A stretch of DNA of 64,000 nucleotides, taken from an archaeon GW2011_AR15 (GTDB lineage: Archaea > Nanobdellota > Nanobdellia > Woesearchaeales > GW2011-AR15). Both the position numbers and the translations under genes were made by a program. Under the pieces are notes generated by a model that had not been told where the DNA came from, made no database searches, and saw only the letters and a program-made list of their open reading frames with translations. This document shows positions 15,270 through 46,655 of this stretch, piece after piece (position 1 is the first letter of the stretch; each line of letters opens with the position of its first letter). Location: contig CP010425.1 in assembly GCA_000830295.1 (NCBI GenBank), forward strand, positions 512,001 through 576,000, in the 5' to 3' direction.

Positions 15270-16538
15270 CTATTCAGCCAGAAGGGGATAGATTTCAGAA
15301 AGCAGATACAAAGAGCCGGTAACTACCAGAATTCCGTCTTTCTTCATGCATTGCCTGAAAGCCCTTTTCGGCTCTCCAGCCACTTCATATTCCCTGTGTC
15401 CAGACCTGCCAAGCCACCTGCCGATATTCTCCGGCTTTTCTGAAAGATTGGCCATATCCTGACTGATAAAAAAAGAGGTTATTGCAATGCTCTCTGCAAC
15501 AGGAAGCATGTGCCTGAGCATGCCTCTGAAATTCTTGCCTTTTTTGAAAGCTATAAGGAAATGGAATTTTTTGCGGGGAAACATTTTCTTAAGTGATTTT
15601 ACAAATGCAGCCATTTTCTGGGGATTATGCGCGCCGTCCAGAACAACTGTTTTTCCGTTAATCTTCCTGGTGTCAAACCTTCCCTCAAACCTGGCAGACA
15701 ACAGGATACTTCCAATCTTTTTCCTGCTGCAGTCAAATCCCTCCCTTCTGCCCAGCATTTCAACAGCCTTTACAGCGAGTGCAGCATTGCTTTGCTGATA
15801 TTCGCCGGCGAGGCCGGTCTTTACCTTGCCTGTTACATAATGCACCACTGCATTTCTTCTCCGGCACGCCATATCAATAACTTTCTTTGCTTCTTCAGGC
15901 TGTACGGTTGATACCACAGTATTATTCTCTTTTATTATGCCGGCTTTCTGTGCCGCAATCTCCTTTATTGTTTTTCCGAGAATATTTGTGTGGTCCAGGC
16001 CTATTTTTGTCAACACAACAATCTTGTCTTTTCCCTCAGCAACATTTGTGCCGTCATAGAATCCGCCCATGCCAGTCTCAATTACAGCATAGTCAACTTT
16101 TTTTTCCCAGAAGATATAATAAGTAAGCCCGGCAAGAACCTCAAAATATGTCAGCCTGCCAAAGCTGCTTTTTCCTGTTTTTCTGATGGCAGGAAGAACA
16201 TCATTGAGATATGAGACAAATTTTTCTTTTGATATTAATCTGTTGTTTATCTGGCATCTTTCCCTTATGTCGCGCAGGTGCGGGCTCAGGTGAAGCCCTG
16301 TCCTGAATCCGAGCTTTGCCAGGATAAGGCTTGCCATATAGGCTGTGCTGCCTTTCCCGGAAGTTCCGGCAATATGGATTATCTTCAGCTTTTCCTGCGG
16401 CTCTCCAAGAAGCTCCAGAAAAAACTTTGTCCTGTCCAGGCCCAACTGCCCCGGAAACTTCTGCGAATCCCGCTTCGGCACAAAATCTAAAAGAAATTTT
16501 TCAGCATCATCAAATGTTTTCATATTCTGTTGGGCCAC
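15270..16538 (-). CDS. folC: Folylpolyglutamate synthase/dihydrofolate synthase
   Basis: HIAGTSGKGST, SPHL...RER, TYFE, ETGMGG.YDGTNV, IGLDHT..LG, DGAHNP, TGSLYL. Confidence 0.93.
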   Translation of the reverse strand: MAQQNMKTFDDAEKFLLDFVPKRDSQKFPGQLGLDRTKFFLELLGEPQEKLKIIHIAGTSGKGSTAYMASLILAKLGFRTGLHLSPHLRDIRERCQINNRLISKEKFVSYLNDVLPAIRKTGKSSFGRLTYFEVLAGLTYYIFWEKKVDYAVIETGMGGFYDGTNVAEGKDKIVVLTKIGLDHTNILGKTIKEIAAQKAGIIKENNTVVSTVQPEEAKKVIDMACRRRNAVVHYVTGKVKTGLAGEYQQSNAALAVKAVEMLGRREGFDCSRKKIGSILLSARFEGRFDTRKINGKTVVLDGAHNPQKMAAFVKSLKKMFPRKKFHFLIAFKKGKNFRGMLRHMLPVAESIAITSFFISQDMANLSEKPENIGRWLGRSGHREYEVAGEPKRAFRQCMKKDGILVVTGSLYLLSEIYPLLAE

Positions 16539-27763: not shown

Positions 27764-27871
27764 GCAATTAGAGAAAGGAGATTTCTTTAAATAGGTTTAT
27801 TATTGCTGATGCGAAAAAGCTGATTTTCTTCAGCCCAAAATTTTATATACCACATATGTTTCTTGAACTGG

Positions 27872-28666
27872 ATGGTATTTGATACATTGCTTGGATGGAC
27901 ATTATCATTCCACCCCGCGCTTTCAATATTGATTCTCTCATTGATTGTCTCAATTATAATCACGCTGGCAATAAAATTCTTCACAGACCAAAGCCTTATG
28001 AAAGATCTTAAGGAAGAGCTGAAAGAACTGCAGAGGCAGATGAAAGAGTTGAGAAACAACCCTAAAAAACTGGCTAAAGTCAATGACCGGGTTATGGAAG
28101 TCAATATGAAATACATGACGCATTCCATGAGGCCAACTTTATTTACATTCATTCCGATAATCCTTGTTTTCGGCTGGATGAACATGCATATAGGGTTTTA
28201 TCCGCTAATGCCAAACGAGCCTTTTCAGCTTACTGCAGTATTTGAAGATGGATCAGACGGGCAGATATCAATGGTTCTTCCTGAAGGCATAACCCTGCTT
28301 GAGGGAGCTGCTGAAAGGGAAGTGCTGGACAATGAAGTCCAGTGGACACTTTCAGGGGAGCCGGGAGAATATGCTTTAGATGTGATGTACAAAGGCAAGA
28401 CATACACCAAGGACATCATAATAGCAGATGAGCCAATATATGCTCCTGTTGAAAAAAGCTTCAGGAAAAGCTATGTCCTGTTCACTTCTCCTGACGAGAA
28501 CGGCCTGAATACAATAAAGCTGAGCAATAAGCAGATAATTCCCTTTGAGGATGTCCCTGTAATGAAAGATATTCCGTGGATAAGCACATTCAACTGGTTC
28601 TGGACATATTTCCTGTTCTCACTTGTTTTTAGCATGGGCCTGAGAAGGGCATTAAATATATATTAA
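27872..28666 (+). CDS. EMC3/TMCO1 (DUF106) Oxa1-superfamily insertase with a large inserted soluble domain
   Basis: TM1, coiled coil, MRPTLFTFIPIILVFGW, WFWTYFLFS; upstream of rpl34e as in archaeal operons; alternative TTG start at 27863. Confidence 0.85.
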   Translation: MVFDTLLGWTLSFHPALSILILSLIVSIIITLAIKFFTDQSLMKDLKEELKELQRQMKELRNNPKKLAKVNDRVMEVNMKYMTHSMRPTLFTFIPIILVFGWMNMHIGFYPLMPNEPFQLTAVFEDGSDGQISMVLPEGITLLEGAAEREVLDNEVQWTLSGEPGEYALDVMYKGKTYTKDIIIADEPIYAPVEKSFRKSYVLFTSPDENGLNTIKLSNKQIIPFEDVPVMKDIPWISTFNWFWTYFLFSLVFSMGLRRALNIY

Positions 28667-28684
28667 CTCATATTTTGGATTAGC

Positions 28685-29755
28685 ATGCCATATAAAAACA
28701 TGAATAGATGGTCTTCTGAAAAAGCAAACAACTGGTATAAGAAGCAGGGCTGGATTGCAGGAATTAATTTCATCCCGAGCAATGCCGTCAACCAGCTGGA
28801 GATGTGGCAACAAGAGACTTTTGACCAGAAAACCATTGACAGGGAGCTGGGATATGCTGAAAAACTTGGCTTCAATGCTGCAAGAGTTTTCCTGCACAAT
28901 CTCCTCTGGGAGCAGGACCCAGAAGGGTTTGTAAAAAGAATAGAAGCATATCTAAAAATAGCTGATAAGCGCGGCATTAAAACAATGTTTGTTCTTCTTG
29001 ATGGCGTATGGAATCCTTTTCCCAGACTTGGAAAACAGCCGGAGCCTCTGCCCTACATTCACAATTCAGGTTGGGTCCAGAGCGCCGGAGCAGAATATCT
29101 CAGAGATGAAAGCAGGCATCCGCTGATAGAGTCATATGTGAAAGGCATAGTAAAGCATTTCGCGGATGACAGAAGAATCCTGATGTGGGATATTTTCAAT
29201 GAACCGAACAATCCCAACAGGGGATATATCGGAAAAGAAATCGTGAACAAGGAAAAAGCAGCCTTCAGGCTGCTTGCAAAGGCATTCTCATGGGCGCGGG
29301 ATGCAAAGCCATCACAACCTATAACAGCAGGTGTATGGGGCAGCATGCTGTTTGGCATAATATGGAAAAAAAGAATAAACCAGTTTATGCTGGCCAATTC
29401 AGATGCCATCACTTTCCACAGTTATAGGTCCGCAGGAAAACTGGAAAAGGAGATATTATATCTAAAAAAATTCAAACGCCCGGTCATCTGCACTGAATAC
29501 ATGGGAAGGCCATACAGCACTTTTGAGACATGCATGCCGGTCTTCAAAAAGCACAATACCGGCTGCTTCAGCTGGGGGCTTGTATCAGGGAAGACGCAGA
29601 CAATTTACCCGTGGTCATCATGGGCTTTAAGGCAGAAAAAAGAGCCAACAGTATGGTTTCATGACATTCTGAGGAAAGACGGGACAGCTTTCAACGAGAA
29701 AGAGGTTGAATTTATAAAAAATTTCACTAAAAAAACCTCCCACCATATTATCTGA
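28685..29755 (+). CDS. Glycoside hydrolase, GH5-like clan A, no signal peptide
   Basis: WDIFNEP acid/base, TFHSY, PVICTEY nucleophile, WGLVSGKTQT. Confidence 0.85.
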   Translation: MPYKNMNRWSSEKANNWYKKQGWIAGINFIPSNAVNQLEMWQQETFDQKTIDRELGYAEKLGFNAARVFLHNLLWEQDPEGFVKRIEAYLKIADKRGIKTMFVLLDGVWNPFPRLGKQPEPLPYIHNSGWVQSAGAEYLRDESRHPLIESYVKGIVKHFADDRRILMWDIFNEPNNPNRGYIGKEIVNKEKAAFRLLAKAFSWARDAKPSQPITAGVWGSMLFGIIWKKRINQFMLANSDAITFHSYRSAGKLEKEILYLKKFKRPVICTEYMGRPYSTFETCMPVFKKHNTGCFSWGLVSGKTQTIYPWSSWALRQKKEPTVWFHDILRKDGTAFNEKEVEFIKNFTKKTSHHII

Positions 29756-34657: not shown

Positions 34658-34806
34658 AAAATTACAGACAGATAATCTTCGGCATATTTATCTTCAACCC
34701 TCTATATTTTCCGGTTTATCCATATTCTCAAAAATATATAATACAATACTATATAATCTAAGATAAGAAATCTTTATAATTAAGTTTATTTTTAGGATTG
34801 GGTAGA

Positions 34807-37800
34807 ATGGCGGGGTTGGATAATTTAGTTTCTACTAATATACGCGACTTCCATGCAAAATTTTCAACTTCACCCGCCGAGCACATAGAAATTCCGAGCA
34901 CACAGAAACTAACCTCTACTGATAAATTTGACAAGACTCTTGAATACCTTACTTCTATCCAGAAATACAGCGGACTGGCTGCCCCGTCAATGCTGGCCAA
35001 TATAGGTGGGGTAGATGCAGCACTCAGTCTCTATGCCAATGTTGCACAAAAAACAAAGGGAACCCCACATATTCTTTTCATTGACAGGAACCCAAGCCAT
35101 ATAGATAATCTCCTGTTCAGGATGATTACTGCAGTGCTAAATCCGGGAAGCAGGAGGGAATATATTGCTGACATCTTTGGAGTTACTGATCCTGAGCAGA
35201 GGAAGAGCATCAACCCCGATTCAATCTCACTCGACGACAAGGTAATCAAAGCTTATGATGTAAGTAAGCATTACGAGATGCTTAAAGCAAAAGCAAAGGA
35301 GAAGTTTGCGGAAAGTCCCAAATTGCTTGAGGAATATCTTGAATCTATCTACAGGATAACAAACCATCTTGGGGCAAATTCAAACTACAGGCAGTTTGTA
35401 ACTGGCCTCAGAGCAAATATAGACGCAAACCCGAAAACCCATTACCTGGCCTCAGATGGCCTGTACAGGAGTGTATCAGGAGTAATAAAAAACGGCAGCA
35501 CATATGCCCACGTCATGTGGGGAGACATAACCCTCCCTGACGGTGAGGCAGCAATAAGGAAAGTCATAAAGAAATATGGGCTTTCAAAGGGAGGCACACT
35601 TCCTTTTGATATTGCATTTATTCCTGACCTTAAAAACAGCATGGACAGCCTTGTCCCTTTCCTGAGAAAAAATGTAGGGGACGTCATATATACCAGGAAA
35701 GATGTCAAGAAAAATGAGAGGTTTTTGGATACAGAGGACGCCAGCCAGCTTGTAATCTCAACAAAGAAAGCCAAGGAAATAGAAGGTTATAAAGAAGAAA
35801 AACTGAAACGGGTAAAGATAGGGGAAAAAGTGCGGGTCTCAAAGGCAGAGGCAAGGGAAGGCATCCCTCCGGTCCTTTTCCTTTCAAAGCTGGATATCGG
35901 CTCAAAATACTGCGATGAGAAAACCCTTGAATATATTACAGAGAAGGCAATAGGCGCGGGCGTGGAGCTTGCGCTGGTCAACGGGGCAGTTTACGGGCCT
36001 TTCTTTTTCTGGGAAAACAAGAGAAGAGCGCTGATTGATCCGGAGTATCCGACACTTGATGCCCAGTTGAGGAGATATGCTGAGTGGAGGCAGGGATTCA
36101 AGAAAGTAGTCCATATAATGAATGATAATGATTCCAAGATTATTGAAGACCTGAATGCGCTCTTTGTGAATGAATATATGAGGAGGACAGAAGGAAAACT
36201 GAATATAGGAACAAGCGTGGGATGGCAGAGGGAATACAGGAATTCAAGGTGGGATGATGCAAAAAGAATCATAAGGGACTGCGTATATCCGTTCCTTCTT
36301 TATCTGGGAGAGGATGCAGCAGGGCTATACACCGAAGACAACTACAGGTCGCCAATATTTGAGCTTGTTTCAGGATTCCAGAGGCTTGAAGAGGGCGGAA
36401 ACTTAAAGCCGGCGGAAAAAAAGGTTCTCCAGGGAAACAGGAAAAAAAGGAAGGCTTTTGAAGCAGTAATGAACCATGGCAATGACAAATTTGAGGTTGT
36501 CCATGAGTTCTCCAAGATGTTTGATGAGAAAAAGAACCTCGGCATAAGATACTCAGGAGGCTGGACATTCTCAAAAATCACAGAATACACAGACCCGATA
36601 TCTGTCCCAAAGCAGAACGTACTGAGGTCGCAGAACGGCCACCTGAAAGATGTGCTTAAGGAGCAGATTATAGCAGACGGAAGGGCAGCGATGCTGTATT
36701 TCAATGCAACAGACGGGGAGAGAGTGACTCTCCTTGTCCCTGGCATGGCGGATGACAGAAGATATTTCACAAATGAGTTCGCGCCAATAAGGCAGGTATT
36801 GCAGGATCCAACACACAAGAGGGCGTCACAGCAGAACAAGACCCTGAATGTGCCGGGCGGAGTTGTCATTTCAGGCGACATAAAGAAAAACATGACAATA
36901 GAGCCATATATTCCGTTCATAATTGAAAGGATGGAAAAAGTCCAGAAGACCGGAACACCATATGAAGAAACAGTAATCCCTATTATCCATGACGTTCAGA
37001 CAGGCTCAATCACTGAGAGAGTGGACATGTTCATGAAATTCCTTGACTATGCAATACATGAGAGAAAAGGAAAGGGAATACTTTCAGTAGGCGACCTTCT
37101 TCAGGGAAGGAATTACAGGGAAATGCCAAATGAGAACCACTGGCTTTCAACAGTTTCCATCAGTGTGCAGCAGGACAATGTAAATGAAATGATAAGGCCA
37201 TTTGTCCCTTACATTAAATTCTTCAAGATGGTTGACGGCAACCACGAGTGGAATTCTGACAGGCTGGCAACAGGAGTCAATTATCATGCAAACATGCGCG
37301 CAATGTTCAGGGAATACAACAGGCATGTTCCTGAGGAAAAACAAATTGATTTTGAGCACTTTGAATTTATAGAGAACAGCAAAGGCGAAATAGTAAAAGC
37401 GCCTTTTGGCAGCCATAAAGAGCAGGACGTAAACATTCTTTTTTCACACATGTATTCCCAAAAAGGCTCAGGAAAAGGAAGCAGCAGGAACCCGGTTACA
37501 CATATGGCCTCATGGCTTGATACAATAGGCAGCATCGCAGACCCTTTCAATATACTCCTTGGAGCGCATTATCACCAGGTTGAGATGATGGGAACAAACG
37601 GCAGGCTTGCTGCTATTCTTGGAAGCAACGCAGGGGAATCAGGGTTTGAGATGGCAAGAGGTTATGCCAGCGTGCCTATGAACGGCCTGCTTATTTTCAA
37701 GCCTGACGGAAGCATAGTTGTTGAGATAGTCTCTGAGCAGTTCTTCAAAAACTACAAGCCAAAGAATCCGGAGATAGTAGCTGCAGGAGGAGTTGATGCT

Positions 37801-37908
37801 TATCTGAAGAATGCATTCCAGCAGGCAGTGTATCCGTTGCATGACGGAATAAGGCAGGGATACGAGCTGCAGCCCTTCTACAAGAGAGAGCTTAAAATAT
37901 CAGAATAG
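34807..37908 (+). CDS. Large protein: putative Rossmann/SAM-binding-like N-terminus, degenerate phosphoesterase, intact calcineurin-like metallophosphoesterase
   Basis: C-terminal HDVQTG, VGDLLQG, DGNHE, SH and GAHYH motifs; central LFLSKLDIGS...LVNG...IMNDND as a degenerate copy. Confidence 0.7.
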   Translation: MAGLDNLVSTNIRDFHAKFSTSPAEHIEIPSTQKLTSTDKFDKTLEYLTSIQKYSGLAAPSMLANIGGVDAALSLYANVAQKTKGTPHILFIDRNPSHIDNLLFRMITAVLNPGSRREYIADIFGVTDPEQRKSINPDSISLDDKVIKAYDVSKHYEMLKAKAKEKFAESPKLLEEYLESIYRITNHLGANSNYRQFVTGLRANIDANPKTHYLASDGLYRSVSGVIKNGSTYAHVMWGDITLPDGEAAIRKVIKKYGLSKGGTLPFDIAFIPDLKNSMDSLVPFLRKNVGDVIYTRKDVKKNERFLDTEDASQLVISTKKAKEIEGYKEEKLKRVKIGEKVRVSKAEAREGIPPVLFLSKLDIGSKYCDEKTLEYITEKAIGAGVELALVNGAVYGPFFFWENKRRALIDPEYPTLDAQLRRYAEWRQGFKKVVHIMNDNDSKIIEDLNALFVNEYMRRTEGKLNIGTSVGWQREYRNSRWDDAKRIIRDCVYPFLLYLGEDAAGLYTEDNYRSPIFELVSGFQRLEEGGNLKPAEKKVLQGNRKKRKAFEAVMNHGNDKFEVVHEFSKMFDEKKNLGIRYSGGWTFSKITEYTDPISVPKQNVLRSQNGHLKDVLKEQIIADGRAAMLYFNATDGERVTLLVPGMADDRRYFTNEFAPIRQVLQDPTHKRASQQNKTLNVPGGVVISGDIKKNMTIEPYIPFIIERMEKVQKTGTPYEETVIPIIHDVQTGSITERVDMFMKFLDYAIHERKGKGILSVGDLLQGRNYREMPNENHWLSTVSISVQQDNVNEMIRPFVPYIKFFKMVDGNHEWNSDRLATGVNYHANMRAMFREYNRHVPEEKQIDFEHFEFIENSKGEIVKAPFGSHKEQDVNILFSHMYSQKGSGKGSSRNPVTHMASWLDTIGSIADPFNILLGAHYHQVEMMGTNGRLAAILGSNAGESGFEMARGYASVPMNGLLIFKPDGSIVVEIVSEQFFKNYKPKNPEIVAAGGVDAYLKNAFQQAVYPLHDGIRQGYELQPFYKRELKISE

Positions 37909-38821: not shown

Positions 38822-39883
38822 TCAATAATTAATCTTATATCTCAATATAGCACCCATCCCGCCCAGTCCGTCCAGCTTGCTTCCTGCCTCATGCTCAGAG
38901 CTGATTATGTGGACTTCGCCCTGCATATTCTCAACAGCCTTCATCATATACTCAACCTGCTCAAAAGTATTGTCTTGCCTTTTCTTCTGTATAAGCCTGT
39001 CAGTTACAAGAAGTTCAGAAACAGCCCCGCTGTCAACAGCCTCTTTGATTTCTTTCAGGCCATACTGTGCTTTTCCTTTTTTTGCAATCTCCCCAAGAAA
39101 CCCCTCGACTTTCCTGCTCTCGTCAGCAAATTTTTCCAGCTTCAGGACCTGCTGGACCTCATCCCTCTTTATCACCTCATTTATCCCGTTGACGCCGACT
39201 GAAGAGCATGTGGCATAGACAACTTTCTTCTTTAAATCGCCTGTTATTATTTTCTGTATATATTCTTTCCAGAATCCCGGGCTGGCGATTATTATGTTTG
39301 AGAAATTATGCCTCTTGTCATAATCCTCGACTGTTTTTTTTATTGCAGCAAAAAAATCGCTTGTTTCCGTCTTCACATCTGCCTTTTTTTGGACATCCCC
39401 TTTTATCTGGCCAAGCATCTCAAAGCCGTATTTTTTCAGCTGCGCAAAATATGCCTCTTCCCTGTCATGCACGACCAGCATTATCTTGCTGTTAAGGCCT
39501 TCTGCAGATTCCTCCAGCTTTTCAATCTGGTATTTCAGCAGGGCCTGCTTCTGGAGTGAAAATTCTGTCCCTCCCTCAAGGGATATTGTATGATGGCTGC
39601 CGAGCGGGATATCGTCGGGGCCTTCCCTGATTATCCCTGAAACCCTCAGCACATTGGAATATTTTGAGAATTCTATTTTGTCAACCTCTATCGCAAGCGT
39701 CACAGGTTTTCTTATTATCTTTGTATTTCTTTCATCTTCCTTCCCCAGCTTCACTTTTCTGTATGTGCTCGCCTTCAGAATATCGGATTTCTCAATAATA
39801 TAAGTCAGGTACCACAGGTCGTCCATGGATTCGACCTGCGCCCTTACAAAATTTTTCCTGTAATCCTTCTTTATTATCCTCAT
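38822..39883 (-). CDS. pelA: Pelota/Dom34 ribosome rescue factor
   Basis: ESMDDLWYL, LRVSG.I, GSHHT, ASPGFWK, HEAG..LDGLGG.GAILRY; start placed at MRIIKK. Confidence 0.95.
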   Translation of the reverse strand: MRIIKKDYRKNFVRAQVESMDDLWYLTYIIEKSDILKASTYRKVKLGKEDERNTKIIRKPVTLAIEVDKIEFSKYSNVLRVSGIIREGPDDIPLGSHHTISLEGGTEFSLQKQALLKYQIEKLEESAEGLNSKIMLVVHDREEAYFAQLKKYGFEMLGQIKGDVQKKADVKTETSDFFAAIKKTVEDYDKRHNFSNIIIASPGFWKEYIQKIITGDLKKKVVYATCSSVGVNGINEVIKRDEVQQVLKLEKFADESRKVEGFLGEIAKKGKAQYGLKEIKEAVDSGAVSELLVTDRLIQKKRQDNTFEQVEYMMKAVENMQGEVHIISSEHEAGSKLDGLGGMGAILRYKINY

Positions 39884-39939
39884 AATCCTATAGAGAAAAT
39901 AATAAGATTTATATATGTAATTGACTGTTTTTCCAGGAT

Positions 39940-41130
39940 ATGAAAAAAGCACAGCTGACAAATCCCAACCCTCAGTCAATGATTGCTTTGCTGATTTTTA
40001 TAATCGGGGTTGCCCTTGTTATGTACATACTTTTCCTTCCTCCGGCCGAGAGGGCAGAGCTTCTTGAGCAGAACAGGAGTACGCCGGGAGACGGCACAAG
40101 GGATGAGATTTCAATTCTTATGACACAGGAGCCTGGCAGGATAAGCAACATAGCAGACACTGAGATAATAAAAGACCTTCCGTCTTTCAACCTTTTTACA
40201 AGGACAGATGCAAAGACACTTGCAGAATTTGATTCCATTTACATAAAAAAATCACTGTTTGAAGAGCAGATGCGGAATATTACTTTTGGGATAGAGGACC
40301 TGGAGCACACAGATAATTATGCATTGTCATACAATGTACAGCGGCACAGCGGAGTACTGACCATTATTCTTAATGATAACATTATTTTAAGCAATGAAAT
40401 AACAACAGCCAGCCCCGCCCCTCTTAAGCTTCCCAAAGACCTGCTTAAGGAAAACAACAATCTTGTTTTCAGGGTATCCGGCCCGGGCATTGAATTCTGG
40501 AAAAGCAATCAGTATATCCTTGAGGACATAAAAGTTACAGCAGATTTCACAGACATTTCAGCGCAGGAGAACATACAGATAATCCATGTGACAGAGCAGG
40601 AAATAGATAATCTCGAATCCATGGACCTTAGATTTGCAGTAAACTGCGAAGAGCTTGCAAACGCGCCTCTTGAGATATACTTAAGGAAGAGGCTTATCTA
40701 TTCAAGCGTGCCTGACTGCGGCACAAGCGTGCTTATACCTCCTGTAGACGGCAGCAGGCTTATTGAGGGAGAAAACGACCTTCTTTTCAGGACAGAAAAA
40801 GGCAATTACCTGCTTTACGGGATAGAGGCAAAGCTTCACCTGAAAAAACCATTGTTCCCTACATACTTCTTCAACCTTGATGCAGAGACATTTAATAAGG
40901 TCAAAAACGATGAAGGAGACCTCAATGTCTCAATACTTTTCCCCAACAGCGAGGACAGGAAAAAAGGGATTATACTTGTAAATGATTACATACTTGAGAT
41001 AGAGACATATGACACATTCTACAACAGGAAGATAAACTCATTCGTCAGGCAGGGCAACAATGCAGTTGAGATACAGCCCAAGGATGAGAAGCTGGATATC
41101 GTCGAGCTACATGTATTTTTAGCAGAGTAA
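39940..41130 (+). CDS. Membrane-anchored beta-rich extracellular protein
   Basis: MKKAQ basic leader then a TM (class III-like signal possible); YILFLPP.ER..LL; repeated L..G.N.l.F modules. Confidence 0.7.
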   Translation: MKKAQLTNPNPQSMIALLIFIIGVALVMYILFLPPAERAELLEQNRSTPGDGTRDEISILMTQEPGRISNIADTEIIKDLPSFNLFTRTDAKTLAEFDSIYIKKSLFEEQMRNITFGIEDLEHTDNYALSYNVQRHSGVLTIILNDNIILSNEITTASPAPLKLPKDLLKENNNLVFRVSGPGIEFWKSNQYILEDIKVTADFTDISAQENIQIIHVTEQEIDNLESMDLRFAVNCEELANAPLEIYLRKRLIYSSVPDCGTSVLIPPVDGSRLIEGENDLLFRTEKGNYLLYGIEAKLHLKKPLFPTYFFNLDAETFNKVKNDEGDLNVSILFPNSEDRKKGIILVNDYILEIETYDTFYNRKINSFVRQGNNAVEIQPKDEKLDIVELHVFLAE

Positions 41131-41170
41131 AGTTTATATAGCTTAAATATTCTAGAAGACTATTAGGGAA

Positions 41171-42868
41171 ATGGCACTTGAAAAGTTAAAAGATCTGCTG
41201 AAAAATGAGACAGATAACCTGGGATTTGCCGAGGCATTATTCGGTGTCTGCGGGGCCGTATTCTTATATCTCGTTGACCTGACCACAAAATGGAACGGCT
41301 ATCCGCTGCTGGAGGTATTTTCAGGGGCATTATTAATAGATGCATTGAGAATAGTGATTTTTGGTTTTTTTACAATAAGACTCCTTATGCTGATTGTAGA
41401 GCATAACAAGCAGGGATTCCACTGGTCAGCATATATCTCCGAGGGACTGCTTCATCTTTTATGGATAATGACTGCAGCAATTGCCCTAAAAAATCCCACT
41501 TCAACACTTCACCTTCTTTTTTCCATCCTTATCTATTTCCTGTTCGGGAAAGCTGTCCCTGAAGAGCATAAGGAAGATTTTACAAGGGCAATCCTTGTGT
41601 TGACTTTTATGGACTTCTATGGCTACGCATTGTTAAAAGGCATAAGCATAGGCTTTATCCTGGAAAACCAATTCAATAGGATACTTGTCCCATTATGGGG
41701 TTTTTATGTTATAGGATTTGCCATGAAGCACAACAGTTCTGCGATATTCAGCTGGACCTTCTTCATCATCTCCGCCATTTATGTCGCAGCCCTGTTTGAC
41801 GGGGTTTCACTTATGGCCCAGCAGACAGACAACCTTGACCAGGGAATTATAAACCAGGCAAAATCATCAGTATTCGGAGGGCTTAACCTTCTTTTTGGGA
41901 TCCCGCAGATGATAACAGACGGATGGAACAATTTCTACCAGCAGACATTCAACCAGTCATACATCTATGGGGGCGAGCAGGAGGAGACAAAGAATCCGCA
42001 GGGTGTTTACCTCACTGAAATTGAAAGGGGAGACTATACGAATTATGCAGATTCTCCTATCTATATATGGGCAAGGCTTGAGGCAAGGACTCTCGACAAA
42101 CCGATAAACCCGGTAACAGTAACCTGCAGCGCCGAGCTGGACGACGGGAACATAACACAGGGCATTGTCAATGAGGAAAGCACAGAATACAAATTCCTCG
42201 TCATATCTGGCGTGGACAGGACAATATCATGCAGGTTTAACAACCTTACAGAAGGAAGGTATACGGCGGTATTCAATGCCACTTTTGATTTCGCAACTGA
42301 TGCAAGGCGCAAGGTCTATCTTATGGACAGGGACAGGTATATAGAGGAACTGCAGGCCCTCAACCAGAGAGGCCAGCAGGCCACAGGAAAGGATGTCCTG
42401 CTCCAGCTTGAAATTACAGACACCGCCCCGGAAACAATCTACACCTCTGGGCCGGTGCTGGTAGGCATAGGCAGCGACAATGTTCCCTGGGACATAGGAG
42501 ACCAGAATAACATAAAATACAGGTTCGGCGTAACAGCAGAGAACGAGTGGACCATAGGCGGAGAAATACTCAAGATAAACAAGATTGAAATGATAGTTCC
42601 CCCGACATTTGACATAATTACTACAAGCTGCGACATAAAGATGCAGCCCGCAGGCTCAAGAGAAGGGGACAAGGTCTATGCAACAACAGCAGTTATTGAT
42701 GATATAGATAACCTTAAAACAATAAACTGCCTTATGAATGTGGACAAGAGGAGCCTTGATCCTGTGCCTGTAACCACAAGGTTCCTGAGGGCACATGTCG
42801 ACTATACCTATATGATAACAGAAGAAATAGATTTTGAGGTGGAGCCTCTTCCCGGCAATACAACATGA
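41171..42868 (+). CDS. Multi-TM N-terminus plus extracellular domain paralogous to the downstream lipoproteins
   Basis: About 6-7 TMs; C-terminal FDFAT, SGPV, Cys pairs and VDYTY correspond to motifs in the next three genes. Confidence 0.7.
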   Translation: MALEKLKDLLKNETDNLGFAEALFGVCGAVFLYLVDLTTKWNGYPLLEVFSGALLIDALRIVIFGFFTIRLLMLIVEHNKQGFHWSAYISEGLLHLLWIMTAAIALKNPTSTLHLLFSILIYFLFGKAVPEEHKEDFTRAILVLTFMDFYGYALLKGISIGFILENQFNRILVPLWGFYVIGFAMKHNSSAIFSWTFFIISAIYVAALFDGVSLMAQQTDNLDQGIINQAKSSVFGGLNLLFGIPQMITDGWNNFYQQTFNQSYIYGGEQEETKNPQGVYLTEIERGDYTNYADSPIYIWARLEARTLDKPINPVTVTCSAELDDGNITQGIVNEESTEYKFLVISGVDRTISCRFNNLTEGRYTAVFNATFDFATDARRKVYLMDRDRYIEELQALNQRGQQATGKDVLLQLEITDTAPETIYTSGPVLVGIGSDNVPWDIGDQNNIKYRFGVTAENEWTIGGEILKINKIEMIVPPTFDIITTSCDIKMQPAGSREGDKVYATTAVIDDIDNLKTINCLMNVDKRSLDPVPVTTRFLRAHVDYTYMITEEIDFEVEPLPGNTT

Positions 42869-43803
42869 AAAAATATATTGCAGCATTAATTCTGCTGGCA
42901 GTTATTACAGCCTGCACAGGCGGCTCAGGAGAGGCAGACCTGGAAAAAGACATATACAAGGGGACAACAGGGGTTGTCCTGAGTTTCTTTGAGAACAGCC
43001 TTGGAGACGAGGTATTCGAGAATGAACAGCTTAATCTTCCTATCAAGCTCGAAAACAAAGGAGCATACCAGGTCACAAATTCAAAGCTCGTGGTGGCAAC
43101 AGAAAGGGGTTTCATAGAATTTTCAAACGGGAACAACATATACCAGAAATCAGGCATAAGGCTGGACGGCAAGAGCGTCTTTGTTACATTTGACGATTTC
43201 CATATAGAAGAGCTTGTAATGAATGTAAAAGAGCTTGACCCGCAGAGCGAATATCATGACTCGTTCATAACCGTCAACTTCTGCTATGACTACAAGACCT
43301 CTGCATTTGCAGAGGTATGCATAGATACAGACCCTCACGGCCAGAGAGTCAGCGACAAAGCATGCTCGCAGATAAACTCAATAAGCATGTCAGAAGGGCA
43401 GGGCGGCCCTGTTGTCATAGAAAGGGTAGAAACAAGGATGCTGGTGGTTGATAATTTCATAAAGCCCCAGTTCAAGATTTACATATCCAACAGGGGAGAA
43501 GGCACAGTGATAAGCCCAAACAGGATAGATTCAGTCTGCAGCCAGGGCTCAATAGGCCAGGAAACATACAATTCCCTGAGGCTTACAGCACTGGACATGT
43601 CAGGATTCTCAATGGGAAGCTTTGAATGCATTCCCTCAGAGCTTGTGCTTTACAATGATGAGGATTTCATAACCTGCACCCTGAAAACAGGGATAAGCAG
43701 GGACAGGCAGCCTTACCTTACTCCTCTGAAAGTGGAGCTTTCATACGGCTATATGGAGACAGCATCAAAAGAAATTAAAATAAAGAAAATATTAAGATAC
43801 TGA
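42865..43803 (+). CDS. Cys-motif lipoprotein, paralog 1
   Basis: Lipobox ITAC; GTTGVVLSF, CYDYKT..VCID, GGPV, NRGEG, LSYGY. Confidence 0.75.
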   Translation: MKKYIAALILLAVITACTGGSGEADLEKDIYKGTTGVVLSFFENSLGDEVFENEQLNLPIKLENKGAYQVTNSKLVVATERGFIEFSNGNNIYQKSGIRLDGKSVFVTFDDFHIEELVMNVKELDPQSEYHDSFITVNFCYDYKTSAFAEVCIDTDPHGQRVSDKACSQINSISMSEGQGGPVVIERVETRMLVVDNFIKPQFKIYISNRGEGTVISPNRIDSVCSQGSIGQETYNSLRLTALDMSGFSMGSFECIPSELVLYNDEDFITCTLKTGISRDRQPYLTPLKVELSYGYMETASKEIKIKKILRY

Positions 43804-43805
43804 GA

Positions 43806-44687
43806 ATGAGAAAAGAGCTTATTGTTTTGTCCTGCCTGCTTGTATTCCTGAGCGCATGCGTCATTGATTCAGGAAGCACAAACCAGCAGAACTGGAGGTC
43901 AGGAACACAGGGCATAGTGATGAGCTTTGTCCAGAACAGTCCGCCGTCTGAGGTCGTAAGCAGGTCAAATGTGGTGGTTGTTCTTGAATATTCAAACAAG
44001 GGAGCAGCTACAACAAGCCCGACATTCTATCTTGGGGGATTTGACAGCAATATACTTCCTTTCGGCAATACAAGGGTTTCTCCGGGAAGCATAGGAGGCA
44101 AGGACCAGTATAACATAGCAGGCTCCCAGCCGGGGTTCCTCAAATGGGAGACAGGCATAAACCTTGGCTCGTTAAGGGAGGTCGACAGCTTTAAGCAGTA
44201 TCTTAGTGTGACAGCATGCTATCCCTACCAGACACTGGCTTCCCCTATAATATGCGTCGATCCGCAGAAATACGAGTATATTGCGCCTGCAAGATGTGAT
44301 TTTGATGTAAAAGAGCTAGGCAGCAGCCAGGGAGGGCCAATGGCAGTCACAGAAGTGAAGCAGAAAGCCACCACTAATGAGATATTCCTTGAGATACATG
44401 TGGAAAACAAAGGCAGCGGCACTCCCTACCTGCAGGGAGACTGCCTTACCCTCGGTTATGAGCAGGTTGACCAGGTAAGCCTTGCTGAGGTTACAATGTC
44501 AGGCAGGAAATTCAGCTGCTCACCATCAACAATAAGGCTTGTAAACGGAAAAGGCTATGCCATATGCAGCCTCGGCATAAATGTTGACTCATATTACGAG
44601 ACGCCGCTGACAATAAGGCTCAATTACAATTACAGGGATACGCTGCCAAGAAAGGAAATAACAATAATAAATGTGGATAAAAAGTAG
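43806..44687 (+). CDS. Cys-motif lipoprotein, paralog 2
   Basis: Lipobox LSAC; GTQGIVMSF, CYPYQT..ICVD, GGPM, NKGSG, LNYNY. Confidence 0.75.
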   Translation: MRKELIVLSCLLVFLSACVIDSGSTNQQNWRSGTQGIVMSFVQNSPPSEVVSRSNVVVVLEYSNKGAATTSPTFYLGGFDSNILPFGNTRVSPGSIGGKDQYNIAGSQPGFLKWETGINLGSLREVDSFKQYLSVTACYPYQTLASPIICVDPQKYEYIAPARCDFDVKELGSSQGGPMAVTEVKQKATTNEIFLEIHVENKGSGTPYLQGDCLTLGYEQVDQVSLAEVTMSGRKFSCSPSTIRLVNGKGYAICSLGINVDSYYETPLTIRLNYNYRDTLPRKEITIINVDKK

Positions 44688-44725
44688 AAAGCTTTATAAT
44701 GTAGAAATGCAGGACTTAATAGAAG

Positions 44726-45679
44726 GTGAATAGCATGAAGAATTTCAGATGGGTCATATTTTTGCTAATTGTAGCTATGCTGACAATGGCTCAGGAAGGG
44801 TGCCAGAGCTCAGGCAAGGGCACAGACAAGATAAATCCTTATATTGGCGGCACGAGAGGCCTTTCAGTCTTGTTTGCAGATGGTGCCCCTCCGGAAGAAG
44901 TGTTTGACAACAAGCAGTACCCATTTGACATTGATGTAAAGCTTCTTAATGTCGGGGAAAAAGATATCTTAAAAGATGATGTAAAAATAGTAATTTCAGG
45001 GCTTAACCCGTCTGATTTCGGCAAGACAGACAACTTCTTCATAAAAGACGGAATTGAAGAGGATGTGCTGGCAACATACAAGGATTTTGAAGGAAACATA
45101 ATAAATCCCTCAGAAGTCTATGTGACCTTCCCCGGGCTTAATTTTCAGGACAAGCTTACAGGAAACTTCCAGCTTAAGGCAAGGGCAGATGTATGCTACG
45201 GATATGAAACAGAAACTGTGGCAGACGGGTGTATAAGGTCCGATGTATTATCAGTTGACCCTGATGCAGTCTGCCAGGTAAACGAGGAAAAGACAGTATA
45301 TAATTCAGGAGCTCCGATCCAGGTAACTGGGTTTACAGAGCAGCCAAGCGGGACAGATAAGATAAGATACCTGTTTACAGTCAAGCACGTGGGTTCAGGA
45401 AGAGTCTATCTCCCGGACAGCAAATGCCCGTCTGTAAGAGGCTCAGAAGACAGGCTTTACTTCAAGATTAAGTCAAGTGTAGCTGACCTTACATGCAGCG
45501 GGCTTGTAGGCGGCAGCGGAAAAGAAGGTGAAATAATCCTGAGAAACGGCGAGCAGACAATAAGATGCGTCCAGCAGACCAAGAGCCAGATTGACTATAT
45601 AGACAGGATAACAATAAGCCTTACATATGACTACCAGGATTCATATGATGAGACTATACTGGTCAAGAAGAGCGATTAA
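44726..45679 (+). CDS. Cys-motif lipoprotein, paralog 3
   Basis: Signal peptide ending QEGC; GTRGLSVLF, CYGYET..CI, GAPI, HVGSG, LTYDY; own promoter at 44687. Confidence 0.75.
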   Translation: MNSMKNFRWVIFLLIVAMLTMAQEGCQSSGKGTDKINPYIGGTRGLSVLFADGAPPEEVFDNKQYPFDIDVKLLNVGEKDILKDDVKIVISGLNPSDFGKTDNFFIKDGIEEDVLATYKDFEGNIINPSEVYVTFPGLNFQDKLTGNFQLKARADVCYGYETETVADGCIRSDVLSVDPDAVCQVNEEKTVYNSGAPIQVTGFTEQPSGTDKIRYLFTVKHVGSGRVYLPDSKCPSVRGSEDRLYFKIKSSVADLTCSGLVGGSGKEGEIILRNGEQTIRCVQQTKSQIDYIDRITISLTYDYQDSYDETILVKKSD

Positions 45680-45698
45680 ATTTTTTATACTCTTTTTT

Positions 45699-46655
45699 TT
45701 AATTCTTGCTGTTATTTATATATGAGATTCCTGCAATAAGGGCTTCCAGCTGTATAAACTCATCGCTGCCCTCCACCATCCTGAACTCTATCTCTCCGCA
45801 GAGCTTTATCATTTCCAGCTTTTTCAGGTCATCCACTTTCTGCTTCCAGATTGAAGACTGTATCTGCTTTATTATATCAAGCCCGGATAAGCCATTCTCA
45901 AACATTGTATTAAGGAGCTTCTTTCTTGCCTCCAGCATATTGTTTTTGAAAGCCAAATCAAGTATCTCCTGCACTTCTTCAGGAAGCGCCTGCGAAGCTA
46001 TGCTGTAGACAGCCTTTTCTGTAATCTCCTGCGCCACGGCTGCAGAGCTCTGGAGCAAATTCTCAACTTTCCTGCAGTCCCCTCCGGTTACCTCATAAAG
46101 GGCCTGCTTTGCATCTCCTGTAACCTTTATCTTTTCCTCAGAGGCAATCTTATCTATGATGCTGAATATATCCTCTTTTGGCAGGGGCTTGAATTTGAAG
46201 ACAACGCACCTGCTCTGTATTGGGTCTATTATTTTTGATGAGAAGTTGCATGACAGGATGAACCTGCATGTCTTGGTGTAATTTTCCATTGTCCTCCTCA
46301 AAGCCTGCTGCGCCTCCCTTGTAAGGGCATCGCACTCGTCAAGGAATATGATCTTGAAAGGCACGTCTCCTATAGCTTTTGTCCTGGCAAAGTCCTTGAC
46401 CTTGACACGGACAACGTCAATACCGCGTTCGTCAGAGGCATTCAGCTCAAGGAAATTCTCTCTCCAGATATCTTTAAAAAGCTCCCTTGCAACCACAAGG
46501 GCAAGTGTGGATTTGCCGACACCAGCAGGCCCTGCAAAAAGCAAGTGGGGCATGTTCTGCTGCTTTACAAACGCCTCTGCCCTCTTCACTATGTCTTTCT
46601 GGCCTTTTATCTCCTTAAATGACTTTGGCCTGTATTTTTCTGTCCATATTTCCAT
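45699..46655 (-). CDS. rfcS: Replication factor C small subunit (no intein)
   Basis: WTEKYRP, GPAGVGKST, ELNASDERG, DECD, SRC motif. Confidence 0.96.
   Translation of the reverse strand: MEIWTEKYRPKSFKEIKGQKDIVKRAEAFVKQQNMPHLLFAGPAGVGKSTLALVVARELFKDIWRENFLELNASDERGIDVVRVKVKDFARTKAIGDVPFKIIFLDECDALTREAQQALRRTMENYTKTCRFILSCNFSSKIIDPIQSRCVVFKFKPLPKEDIFSIIDKIASEEKIKVTGDAKQALYEVTGGDCRKVENLLQSSAAVAQEITEKAVYSIASQALPEEVQEILDLAFKNNMLEARKKLLNTMFENGLSGLDIIKQIQSSIWKQKVDDLKKLEMIKLCGEIEFRMVEGSDEFIQLEALIAGISYINNSKN

Follow-up and report, generated by a model that had tools for sequence, protein, structure and literature searches.

A conserved five-gene cluster of predicted surface proteins in Woesearchaeales archaea, possibly a membrane-tethered platform for contact with bacterial cell walls

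The question raised by a locus of the archaeon GW2011_AR15, a member of the Woesearchaeales, is what a compact run of five genes, all predicted to encode envelope proteins, contributes to the cell that carries it. The analysed window is a stretch of 64,000 nucleotides (C1:512001-576000). The genome, 96.8% complete, consists of one contig with 1,157,790 bases; the cluster lies at 552-558 kb of that genome, and its five open reading frames (ORFs), here called A to E, are co-oriented on the plus strand at window positions 39940-45679. The answer towards which we lean, tentatively, is that the cluster may encode a surface platform, tethered to the membrane and serving contact with the walls of bacterial cells, in which the five proteins would form one complex. 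The genes are as follows:

39940-41130, plus strand, gene A, 396 aa, ATG start
41171-42868, plus strand, gene B, 565 aa
42865-43803, plus strand, gene C, 312 aa, its start overlapping the stop of B as ATGA
43806-44687, plus strand, gene D, 293 aa
44726-45679, plus strand, gene E, 317 aa, GTG start

The ORF calls bore out an initial annotation, made from the DNA sequence alone, in its claims that five co-oriented envelope genes stand here and that the central three overlap or nearly abut, as B and C overlap by 4 nt and C and D lie 2 nt apart, with 40 nt between A and B and 38 nt between D and E. The same annotation could assign the repeated domain of these proteins to no characterised family, and in agreement with this a scan of A to E against Pfam-A and NCBIfam returned zero families at or above cut-off.

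Sequence comparison places the paralogy of C, D and E far above chance, with BLASTP values of E=3e-22 for C against D and E=8e-16 for C against E, and profile-profile values for the families of 4.2e-65 (C/D) and 1.7e-38 (C/E). The motifs GTxGxxxxF, CYxYxT...C, GxP(V/M/I), (N/H)xGxG and LxYxY are collinear in all three proteins, and the cysteine that ends the signal peptide is invariant in the three family alignments, so that the three lipoproteins with shared ordered motifs of the initial annotation were recovered, albeit with an atypical lipobox in the E protein of the window. The signal peptides of C and D end in the lipoboxes ITAC and LSAC, while that of E ends in the non-canonical QEGC, its nearest relatives having QEGC or QESC; most homologues show a canonical context such as LLAGC or LSAC. 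A lipobox-like pattern, loose and of our own definition ([hydrophobic]-x-[GAS]-C), was present in 20/24 members of the C family, 19/19 of the D family and 20/26 of the E family. The C family has six further conserved cysteines, sufficient for three disulfides, and the AlphaFold2 model of C (32-row alignment, predicted local distance difference test (pLDDT) 85.6, predicted template-modelling score (pTM) 0.79) is all-beta and two-lobed, with two strands of about 24 residues each, at 130-153 and 284-307, which by their length appear to cross both lobes. Multimer prediction for mature C, D and E, with E as the partner, gave no verdict for or against a complex, the run scores being 0.00, 0.35 and 0.02 where the mark stood at 0.32, with the controls unrun.

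Protein B consists of two parts:

41171..41990, plus strand, membrane part of B, residues 1-~273, low sequence conservation, about seven helices predicted
41991..42868, plus strand, beta domain of B, residues ~275-565, two-lobed, predicted to be extracytoplasmic, diverged copy of the C/D/E domain

From profiles and models we take the C-terminal domain of B to be the fourth copy, though a diverged one, of the domain of C, D and E, because the profiles align, the motifs are collinear and the strand order is the same. BLASTP found no significant similarity between B and C; a profile of the last 296 residues of B aligned with the full C family at an hhalign value of 70.7% (E 3.8e-5, 312 columns) and much more weakly with D and E (1.6% and 4.4%), an earlier comparison with an untrimmed B profile having given 37-45%. 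Within this alignment F-x-F-x-T-x-A of B falls over CYxYxTxA of C, GPV over G(G/A)PV, NxWxxG over NxGxG and YxY over YGY, and in the AlphaFold models the strand order of the B beta domain, the two long strands included, mirrors that of C. The AlphaFold2 model of B (23-row alignment, pLDDT 79.3) comprises about seven helices (residues 19-214), a long poorly modelled helix and the beta domain (278-558), although a hydropathy scan marked only four strong segments as against the seven or so helices of the model. Residues 275-564 of the ESM Atlas model of B align with two archaeal clusters, one of 319 aa at a template-modelling (TM) score of 0.69 and one of 275 aa at 0.63; neither cluster has a family, and the label of the 319-aa one, Aenigmatarchaeota, is the one, tentative hint of a possible occurrence beyond the phylum. 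The initial annotation had proposed both a fourth gene that fuses a diverged domain copy to six or seven transmembrane helices and the maintenance of diverged paralogues side by side, one of them membrane-integral, and both descriptions hold, with domain copies in B, C, D and E.

Across 23 aligned rows, and leaving the start methionine aside, only six positions within residues 1-270 of B reach 60% conservation, namely D36 (16/23), L155 (14/23), P174 (18/23), Y266 (19/23), G268 (17/23) and a glycine at column 262 (15/23). Because almost no polar residue is conserved, the membrane part looks, from its alignment, like an anchor and not like an enzyme or a channel. The idea that B is a lipidation enzyme of the AliA/Lgt-like kind was dropped, its membrane part being nearly without conserved residues, and nothing was found in favour of the channel or secretion role that had been suggested initially.

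Foldseek and exhaustive VIA searches with the model of C returned generic immunoglobulin (Ig)-like sandwiches only, among them integrin leg domains, complement MG domains, cohesins, transglutaminase barrels and Gram-positive adhesins, the best with Z 9.1 over 88 residues, a level that VIA itself classes as common; the matches included one S-layer row (SbsC, Z 6.9). The lists obtained with B were filled by matches to its beta domain, the best having Z 11.4, and the best B and C matches each extended over about 100 aligned residues. Sequence-profile searches of the PDB gave one chance-level match with C, D and E and 0 matches with A. The generic Ig-like or CARDB-like folds of these models say nothing on function. 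The initial annotation had allowed that the domain could prove to be a known generic Ig family, which is the case at the level of the fold and not at the level of the family.

Protein A begins with MKKAQ, followed by ten polar residues, a strongly hydrophobic helix and a family-conserved YILFLPPxER, the leader sequence being MKKAQ...IALLIFIIGVALVMYILF. It has the basic residues, the [KR][GA] pair and the hydrophobic helix of a type IV pilin-like (class III) N-terminus, and the KKAQ-hydrophobic leader to which the initial annotation drew attention is conserved in the family, with [KR][GA]Q in 17/23 homologues and [KR][GA]x in 21/23. A genome-wide scan for a basic-[GA]-x motif with a hydrophobic stretch yielded 45 ORFs, 16 of them with Q, and the leader of A matches that of these 16 candidate pilin-like ORFs of its own genome. 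Most of the candidates are clustered at 635-645 kb, 663-666 kb, 808-810 kb and 343 kb, and T2SSE ATPase genes adjoin the clusters at 808-810 kb and 343 kb, the T2SSE matches at 345, 352 and 806 kb standing apart from the five-gene cluster. A prepilin peptidase (Peptidase_A24, PF01478) above cut-off (42.7 bits) is encoded at C1:891267-891596. Beside A no type IV filament (T4F) ATPase and no platform protein were found, its neighbours being housekeeping genes; judged from its sequence, A carries the organism's usual pilin-type leader despite having no pilus gene nearby. The ectodomain comprises three beta modules of ~110 aa, each with an L-x-I-x-LNG-x-x-I motif, of which modules 1 and 2 are related at 96% in hhalign (E 2.5e-9) and modules 2 and 3 weakly (E 1.7e-3). 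Pfam matches within the A family were all below threshold, CBM_35, BetaGal_ABD2 and a pectate-lyase-like family in 2/23 members each and BcsB in 1/23.

The distribution of the proteins was determined in a sample of 401 genomes of the phylum by counting profile matches per genome, and as relatives are non-independent the counts are descriptive only. The C/D/E profile matched 352/401 genomes, nearly all those of the same order having 3-4 matches and those of other orders 1-2, while the A profile matched 357/401, nearly always once. Both were present in 345 genomes, A only in 12 (mostly weak), C/D/E only in 7 and neither in 37; six genomes flagged as unpublished (G242, G243, G321, G332, G359, G395), all doubly positive, are included in both tallies, which become 346/395 for C/D/E and 351/395 for A when these are left out. 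Gene order was A, B and three paralogues in 17/20 loci of the same order, one C among these having been found by profile and not by ORF picking and one copy in the D slot classifying as C. The gene for the small subunit of replication factor C (RFC) lies beside the cluster in 20/20 of these loci and pelota does so too in 17/20, whereas the five loci from other orders, with A-B-C-E in 4/5 and A-E in 1, have different neighbours; E is the copy best retained there. The B-C junction overlaps or spans <=10 nt in 17/23 loci. An exhaustive profile search with eight E-type sequences among 1.84 billion cluster representatives gave 3,074 matches at E<=1e-3, 2,173 at 1e-10 and 621 at 1e-30, suggesting a family of modest, lineage-sized extent, and 28/28 matches that carried a taxon name were Woesearchaeota, Nanoarchaeota, Nanoarchaeia, Nanobdellota or plain 'archaeon' (3). 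As far as matches carry names, the restriction to DPANN archaea that had been put forward for checking is therefore seen, the named matches being of the Woesearchaeota/Nanoarchaeota type, and the sequence data mark the cluster as a lineage-specific, vertically inherited core feature of the order.

Variation was observed at some of these loci. In one family of the order the A and C orthologues bear long Cys-rich insertions, A reaching 568 aa and C 420-460 aa with 19-29 Cys:

L042:5642-7348, A orthologue with Cys-rich insertion
L041:8662-10044, C orthologue with Cys-rich insertion
L042:9040-10302, C orthologue with Cys-rich insertion

In one genome of another order a 1,211-aa protein with fn3, Big_7 and DUF4215 (L047:2574-6209) is encoded directly upstream of A. 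A gene of 405-418 aa is conserved after the cluster, 3' of E, in the other orders:

L045:5809-7026, gene for the 405-418 aa protein
L046:11797-13029, gene for the 405-418 aa protein
L047:10654-11892, gene for the 405-418 aa protein
L048:7093-8349, gene for the 405-418 aa protein
L049:7747-8979, gene for the 405-418 aa protein

This gene was rejected as a sixth member, its product having no hydrophobic segment. With a DLHIHS-like start, a CPxC pair and a sub-threshold PHP_C match in 1/5, the protein is read as cytoplasmic and probably of PHP type, and we take it to be similar to endonuclease Q (EndoQ-like).

The link to peptidoglycan comes from the orthologues of B, which range from ~420 to ~1,280 aa and add SLT, M23 or NlpC/P60 domains at the C-terminal end of the protein. 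We scanned 84 proteins in the B slot, a first set of 25 and a second of 59 (51 confirmed by the B profile and 8 assigned by their position between A and the first paralogue), and found a peptidoglycan hydrolase above the Pfam cut-off in 12/84, SLT in 8, M23 in 3 and NlpC/P60 in 1, the 12 proteins spanning nine families of the order. They are listed here by locus:

SLT, L044 62.7 bits, L029 44.9, L036 36.0, L062 34.9
SLT, L070 36.1 bits, L073 24.2, L094 32.7, L078 46.4
Peptidase_M23, L034 61.9 bits, L055 55.6, L060 60.1
NlpC/P60, L037 52.1 bits

The hydrolase is placed C-terminal to the B beta domain, and the B-type domain was detected in 11/12 of these proteins, L055 being the exception and L060 and L078 giving weak matches only. 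At L034 a distance of 5 kb separates the B gene from C-D-E, and the locus has no A. Three unrelated classes of wall hydrolase have, as judged from these domain matches, been recruited repeatedly to the free end of one scaffold, B. No hydrolase domain was found by Pfam in the B protein of the window. The host attachment proposed by the initial annotation thereby gains indirect support from the orthologues, and none from a catalytic domain of the window protein itself. In the genome of the window there was no match to SLT or NlpC/P60 and a single M23 protein (C1:645 kb, 358 aa, 61.8 bits), which is membrane-anchored and encoded directly after pilin-like genes. Neither SEDS nor a penicillin-binding protein (PBP) transpeptidase was found in this 96.8%-complete genome, so that its sole ORF of the Mur-ligase family, a Mur_ligase_M match at window 15270-16538 on the minus strand (34.1 bits), is probably not a murein ligase; the family also matches the wall-less archaeal controls Methanocaldococcus and Haloferax. 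An own murein wall is therefore unlikely, and with no SEDS/PBP murein synthesis the cell's own wall is unlikely as a substrate of the hydrolases.

As a separate observation, the region C1:635619-646078 contains at least 10 ORFs with [KR][KR]AQ and a hydrophobic stretch, that is, a pilin-type leader, and ends in the M23 protein (L050 = 644180-647500). With this M23 gene next to a pilin-like run, the genome connects pilin-like surface proteins to a murein hydrolase for a second time.

While the gene content, paralogy, anchors, conservation, synteny and hydrolase fusions of the orthologues were observed directly, we infer the assembly into one complex, the binding of glycan by A and the bacterial target. 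All five products would be anchored on the outside of the cytoplasmic membrane: A through its pilin-type N-terminal helix, B by its several helices of low sequence conservation, and the three paralogues C, D and E via lipidation of their lipobox cysteine. One two-lobed, disulfide-rich beta-sandwich domain would be presented by each of B, C, D and E, and three modules resembling carbohydrate-binding modules (CBMs) by A. Together they would assemble into a membrane-proximal platform whose outward face might meet bacterial peptidoglycan, with A as the putative glycan-binding arm, and in some lineages the wall would be cut by a hydrolase on the free C-terminus of B.

The signals that may govern expression of the cluster, and its immediate flanks, are the following:

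39908..39915, plus strand, TATA-like box TTTATATA, 32 nt 5' of the ATG of A, consensus match, putative function
41133..41140, plus strand, TATA-like box TTTATATA, 38 nt 5' of B, consensus match
44693..44700, plus strand, TATA-like box TTTATAAT, 33 nt 5' of the GTG of E, consensus match
45680..45702, no strand assigned, T-rich stretch where the E and RFC-small genes converge
38822-39979, minus strand, pelota, flanking on the A side
45699-46655, minus strand, RFC small subunit, flanking beyond E, convergent

The same scan found no TATA-like octamer before C or D. The box 5' of A is a possible promoter, which would give a transcript with a short leader or none, and the T-rich stretch after E is likely a terminator region; transcription may proceed as A, B-C-D and E, or as a single unit with internal promoters. 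At 0.42-0.455 the G+C content of the cluster is similar to that of the remaining window. The sequencing runs with matching DNA were groundwater and soil metagenomes, and no RNA run was among the matches listed. No pilin, VirB4-like or T2SSE ATPase gene was found near the cluster, its flanks being pelota, RFC and other housekeeping genes, and the neighbourhood links to pilins or VirB4-like ATPases that the initial annotation had thought worth seeking were thus not there.

Several of these observations weigh against the proposed platform: the TATA-like boxes at A, B and E permit three separate transcripts, the fold matches of B and C are of the generic Ig-like kind, the CBM likeness of A is based on sub-threshold Pfam matches in 2/23 members each, 72/84 B-slot proteins, that of the window included, are without a recognisable hydrolase, and the near-universality of the cluster in the order also fits a housekeeping role in the envelope. 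The hydrolases may be occasional passengers on a convenient anchor and not a clue to the core function. The main rival, favoured by the near-universal occurrence and by the B-slot proteins without an enzyme, takes the proteins to be a scaffold belonging to the envelope of the cell itself, either a structural layer close to the membrane or an S-layer anchor, needed for shape and integrity, with the hydrolases as passengers. Archaeal S-layer proteins are built of Ig-like domains, and the Ig-like modules with the one S-layer match (SbsC, Z 6.9) are consistent with such a scaffold, as are a near-universal and mostly single-locus occurrence in the order between housekeeping genes, a composition like that of the surroundings and the presence of an enzyme on just 12/84 B-slot proteins. 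However, the proteins are small, with ectodomains of ~30 kDa, and a scaffold leaves unexplained both the pilin-type leader of A with its three repeated CBM-like modules and the recruitment of three unrelated wall hydrolases to the same protein; we regard it as somewhat unlikely. A more far-reaching form of the platform, rather improbable in our estimation, is the core of an undescribed host-contact organelle common to the Woesearchaeales and neighbouring orders, in which B, C, D and E would form a hetero-oligomeric base and A a peptidoglycan-binding arm, and to which different lineages would add lytic transglycosylase, M23 or NlpC/P60 domains as blades. If this were true, the hosts or prey of a very large archaeal group would be bacteria and the cluster would be the handle with which to find them.

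The leader of A also bears on the doubtful proposal that A, held by its pilin-type helix, and the lipoproteins collect glycans or muropeptides for uptake in the manner of the Sulfolobus bindosome. A class III-like leader on a large non-pilin protein and the weak CBM-type matches in A would fit such a capture system, and binding proteins with leaders of this kind are widespread in archaea according to the accessible part of PMC13705601; nonetheless, no ABC (ATP-binding cassette) transporter, solute-binding fold, T4F ATPase or platform gene was found near the cluster, and the membrane part of B has no conserved polar residues. That the five genes have no common function and encode unrelated surface proteins that are neighbours by chance is very improbable: separate promoters are possible, but gene order is retained in 17/20 loci of the order and partly in other orders, the overlap of B and C suggests translational coupling, and A and C/D/E occur together in 345/401 genomes. 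Least credible is a membrane-fusion device akin to the class II fusogens (HAP2/fusexin). The beta domain of B aligns with HAP2 and archaeal Fsx1 (Z 8.9-10.2, 80-104 residues), yet with their domain III only and at the same level as dozens of Ig domains of glycosidases (top Z 11.4), and neither an elongated domain II nor a fusion loop was seen; this reading was rejected as a probably generic resemblance between Ig domains. The platform for contact with bacterial cell walls is the reading that we retain, as a possibility.

Two further regions of the window lie upstream of the cluster. A 1,036-aa ORF (window 34798-37908, plus strand), located beyond pelota and a DUF3147 membrane protein, had no Pfam family at E<=1e-5 and no phmmer match in 25 related loci. 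At window 27863-29755 (plus strand) an ORF for an EMC3/TMCO1-like (YidC/Oxa1-type) insertase is followed by an ORF with a weak match to GH5 cellulase (E 1.2e-6).

The Woesearchaeota-type archaea rank with the most diverse archaea yet to be cultured, and to our knowledge neither their partners nor their mode of contact have been established. A cluster that occurs in almost every sampled genome of the order, that consists of surface proteins only, of undescribed families, and that domain fusions connect with three classes of hydrolase acting on bacterial walls, provides concrete targets, open to cloning, with which to ask what partners these cells touch and by what means. Few envelope components of DPANN archaea are described, and the cluster extends them by a non-pilin protein bearing a class III signal and by three predicted lipoproteins that are well conserved.

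Thioether-linked archaeol is the lipid known from archaeal lipoproteins, and the class III signal proteins include anchored beta-sandwich proteins of the FlaF/FlaG type. The available part of PMC12462473 reports archaeol lipidation of lipobox proteins that depends on AliA, with AliA present in DPANN archaea and lipidation by AliA/AliB shown in Haloferax; C, D and E resemble such lipoproteins in that signal peptides end in [L/V/I]-x-[G/A/S]-C, and differ in that their lipidation is predicted and their mature domain is in no described family. As far as the part of PMC13705601 that was available goes, class III signals also occur on non-pilin binding proteins, the bindosome included, and A is like these in its [KR][GA]Q motif and hydrophobic helix and in having a prepilin peptidase encoded by its genome; it differs in an ectodomain of 390 aa made of three beta modules, in a hydrophobic stretch that begins only ~10 residues past the motif and in having neither a T4F ATPase nor a platform gene as a neighbour. 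With CARDB, DUF11 and NPCBM_assoc the cluster domain has in common an NxG(A/E) strand motif in its first lobe, and CARDB itself is the subject of a structural match with B (3idu, Z 9.2); it differs in its two lobes, in the long strands that these share and in its three pairs of conserved Cys. Sub-threshold Pfam matches were to CARDB in 2/24 members of the C family and 4/26 of the E family and to DUF11 in 2/24 of the C family, the gathering cut-offs of CARDB, DUF11 and NPCBM_assoc being reached by no member, with zero matches for the window proteins. Domain III of the class II fusogens (HAP2, archaeal Fsx1) and B are both Ig-like sandwiches of ~100 residues, a resemblance that is probably generic, as no other fusogen domain was matched.

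A near parallel is provided by the large extracellular proteins of murein-type lytic transglycosylase that the available parts of PMC8204110 and PMC9723730 describe from Woesearchaeota and Pacearchaeota, and for which attachment to, or attack on, bacterial walls was proposed, neither text describing the five-gene cluster; PMC8204110, in the same part, also reports 51 families, most of them unknown, as a module that is specific to the two lineages. The fam00969 proteins of PMC8204110 and the GH23 proteins of PMC9723730, as far as these sources could be consulted, likewise have SLT on extracytoplasmic proteins of the same lineages, the difference being that here SLT, M23 or NlpC/P60 is an optional C-terminal addition to the B protein of a five-gene cluster. 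A literature search found no description of the cluster, although the supplementary family tables of PMC8204110, which lay outside that search, may list these families. The anchors, lipobox and class III signal, are of known kinds and the folds are generic, while the two domain families, the five-gene cluster kept across the order and the link to murein hydrolases via the fusions of B are new.

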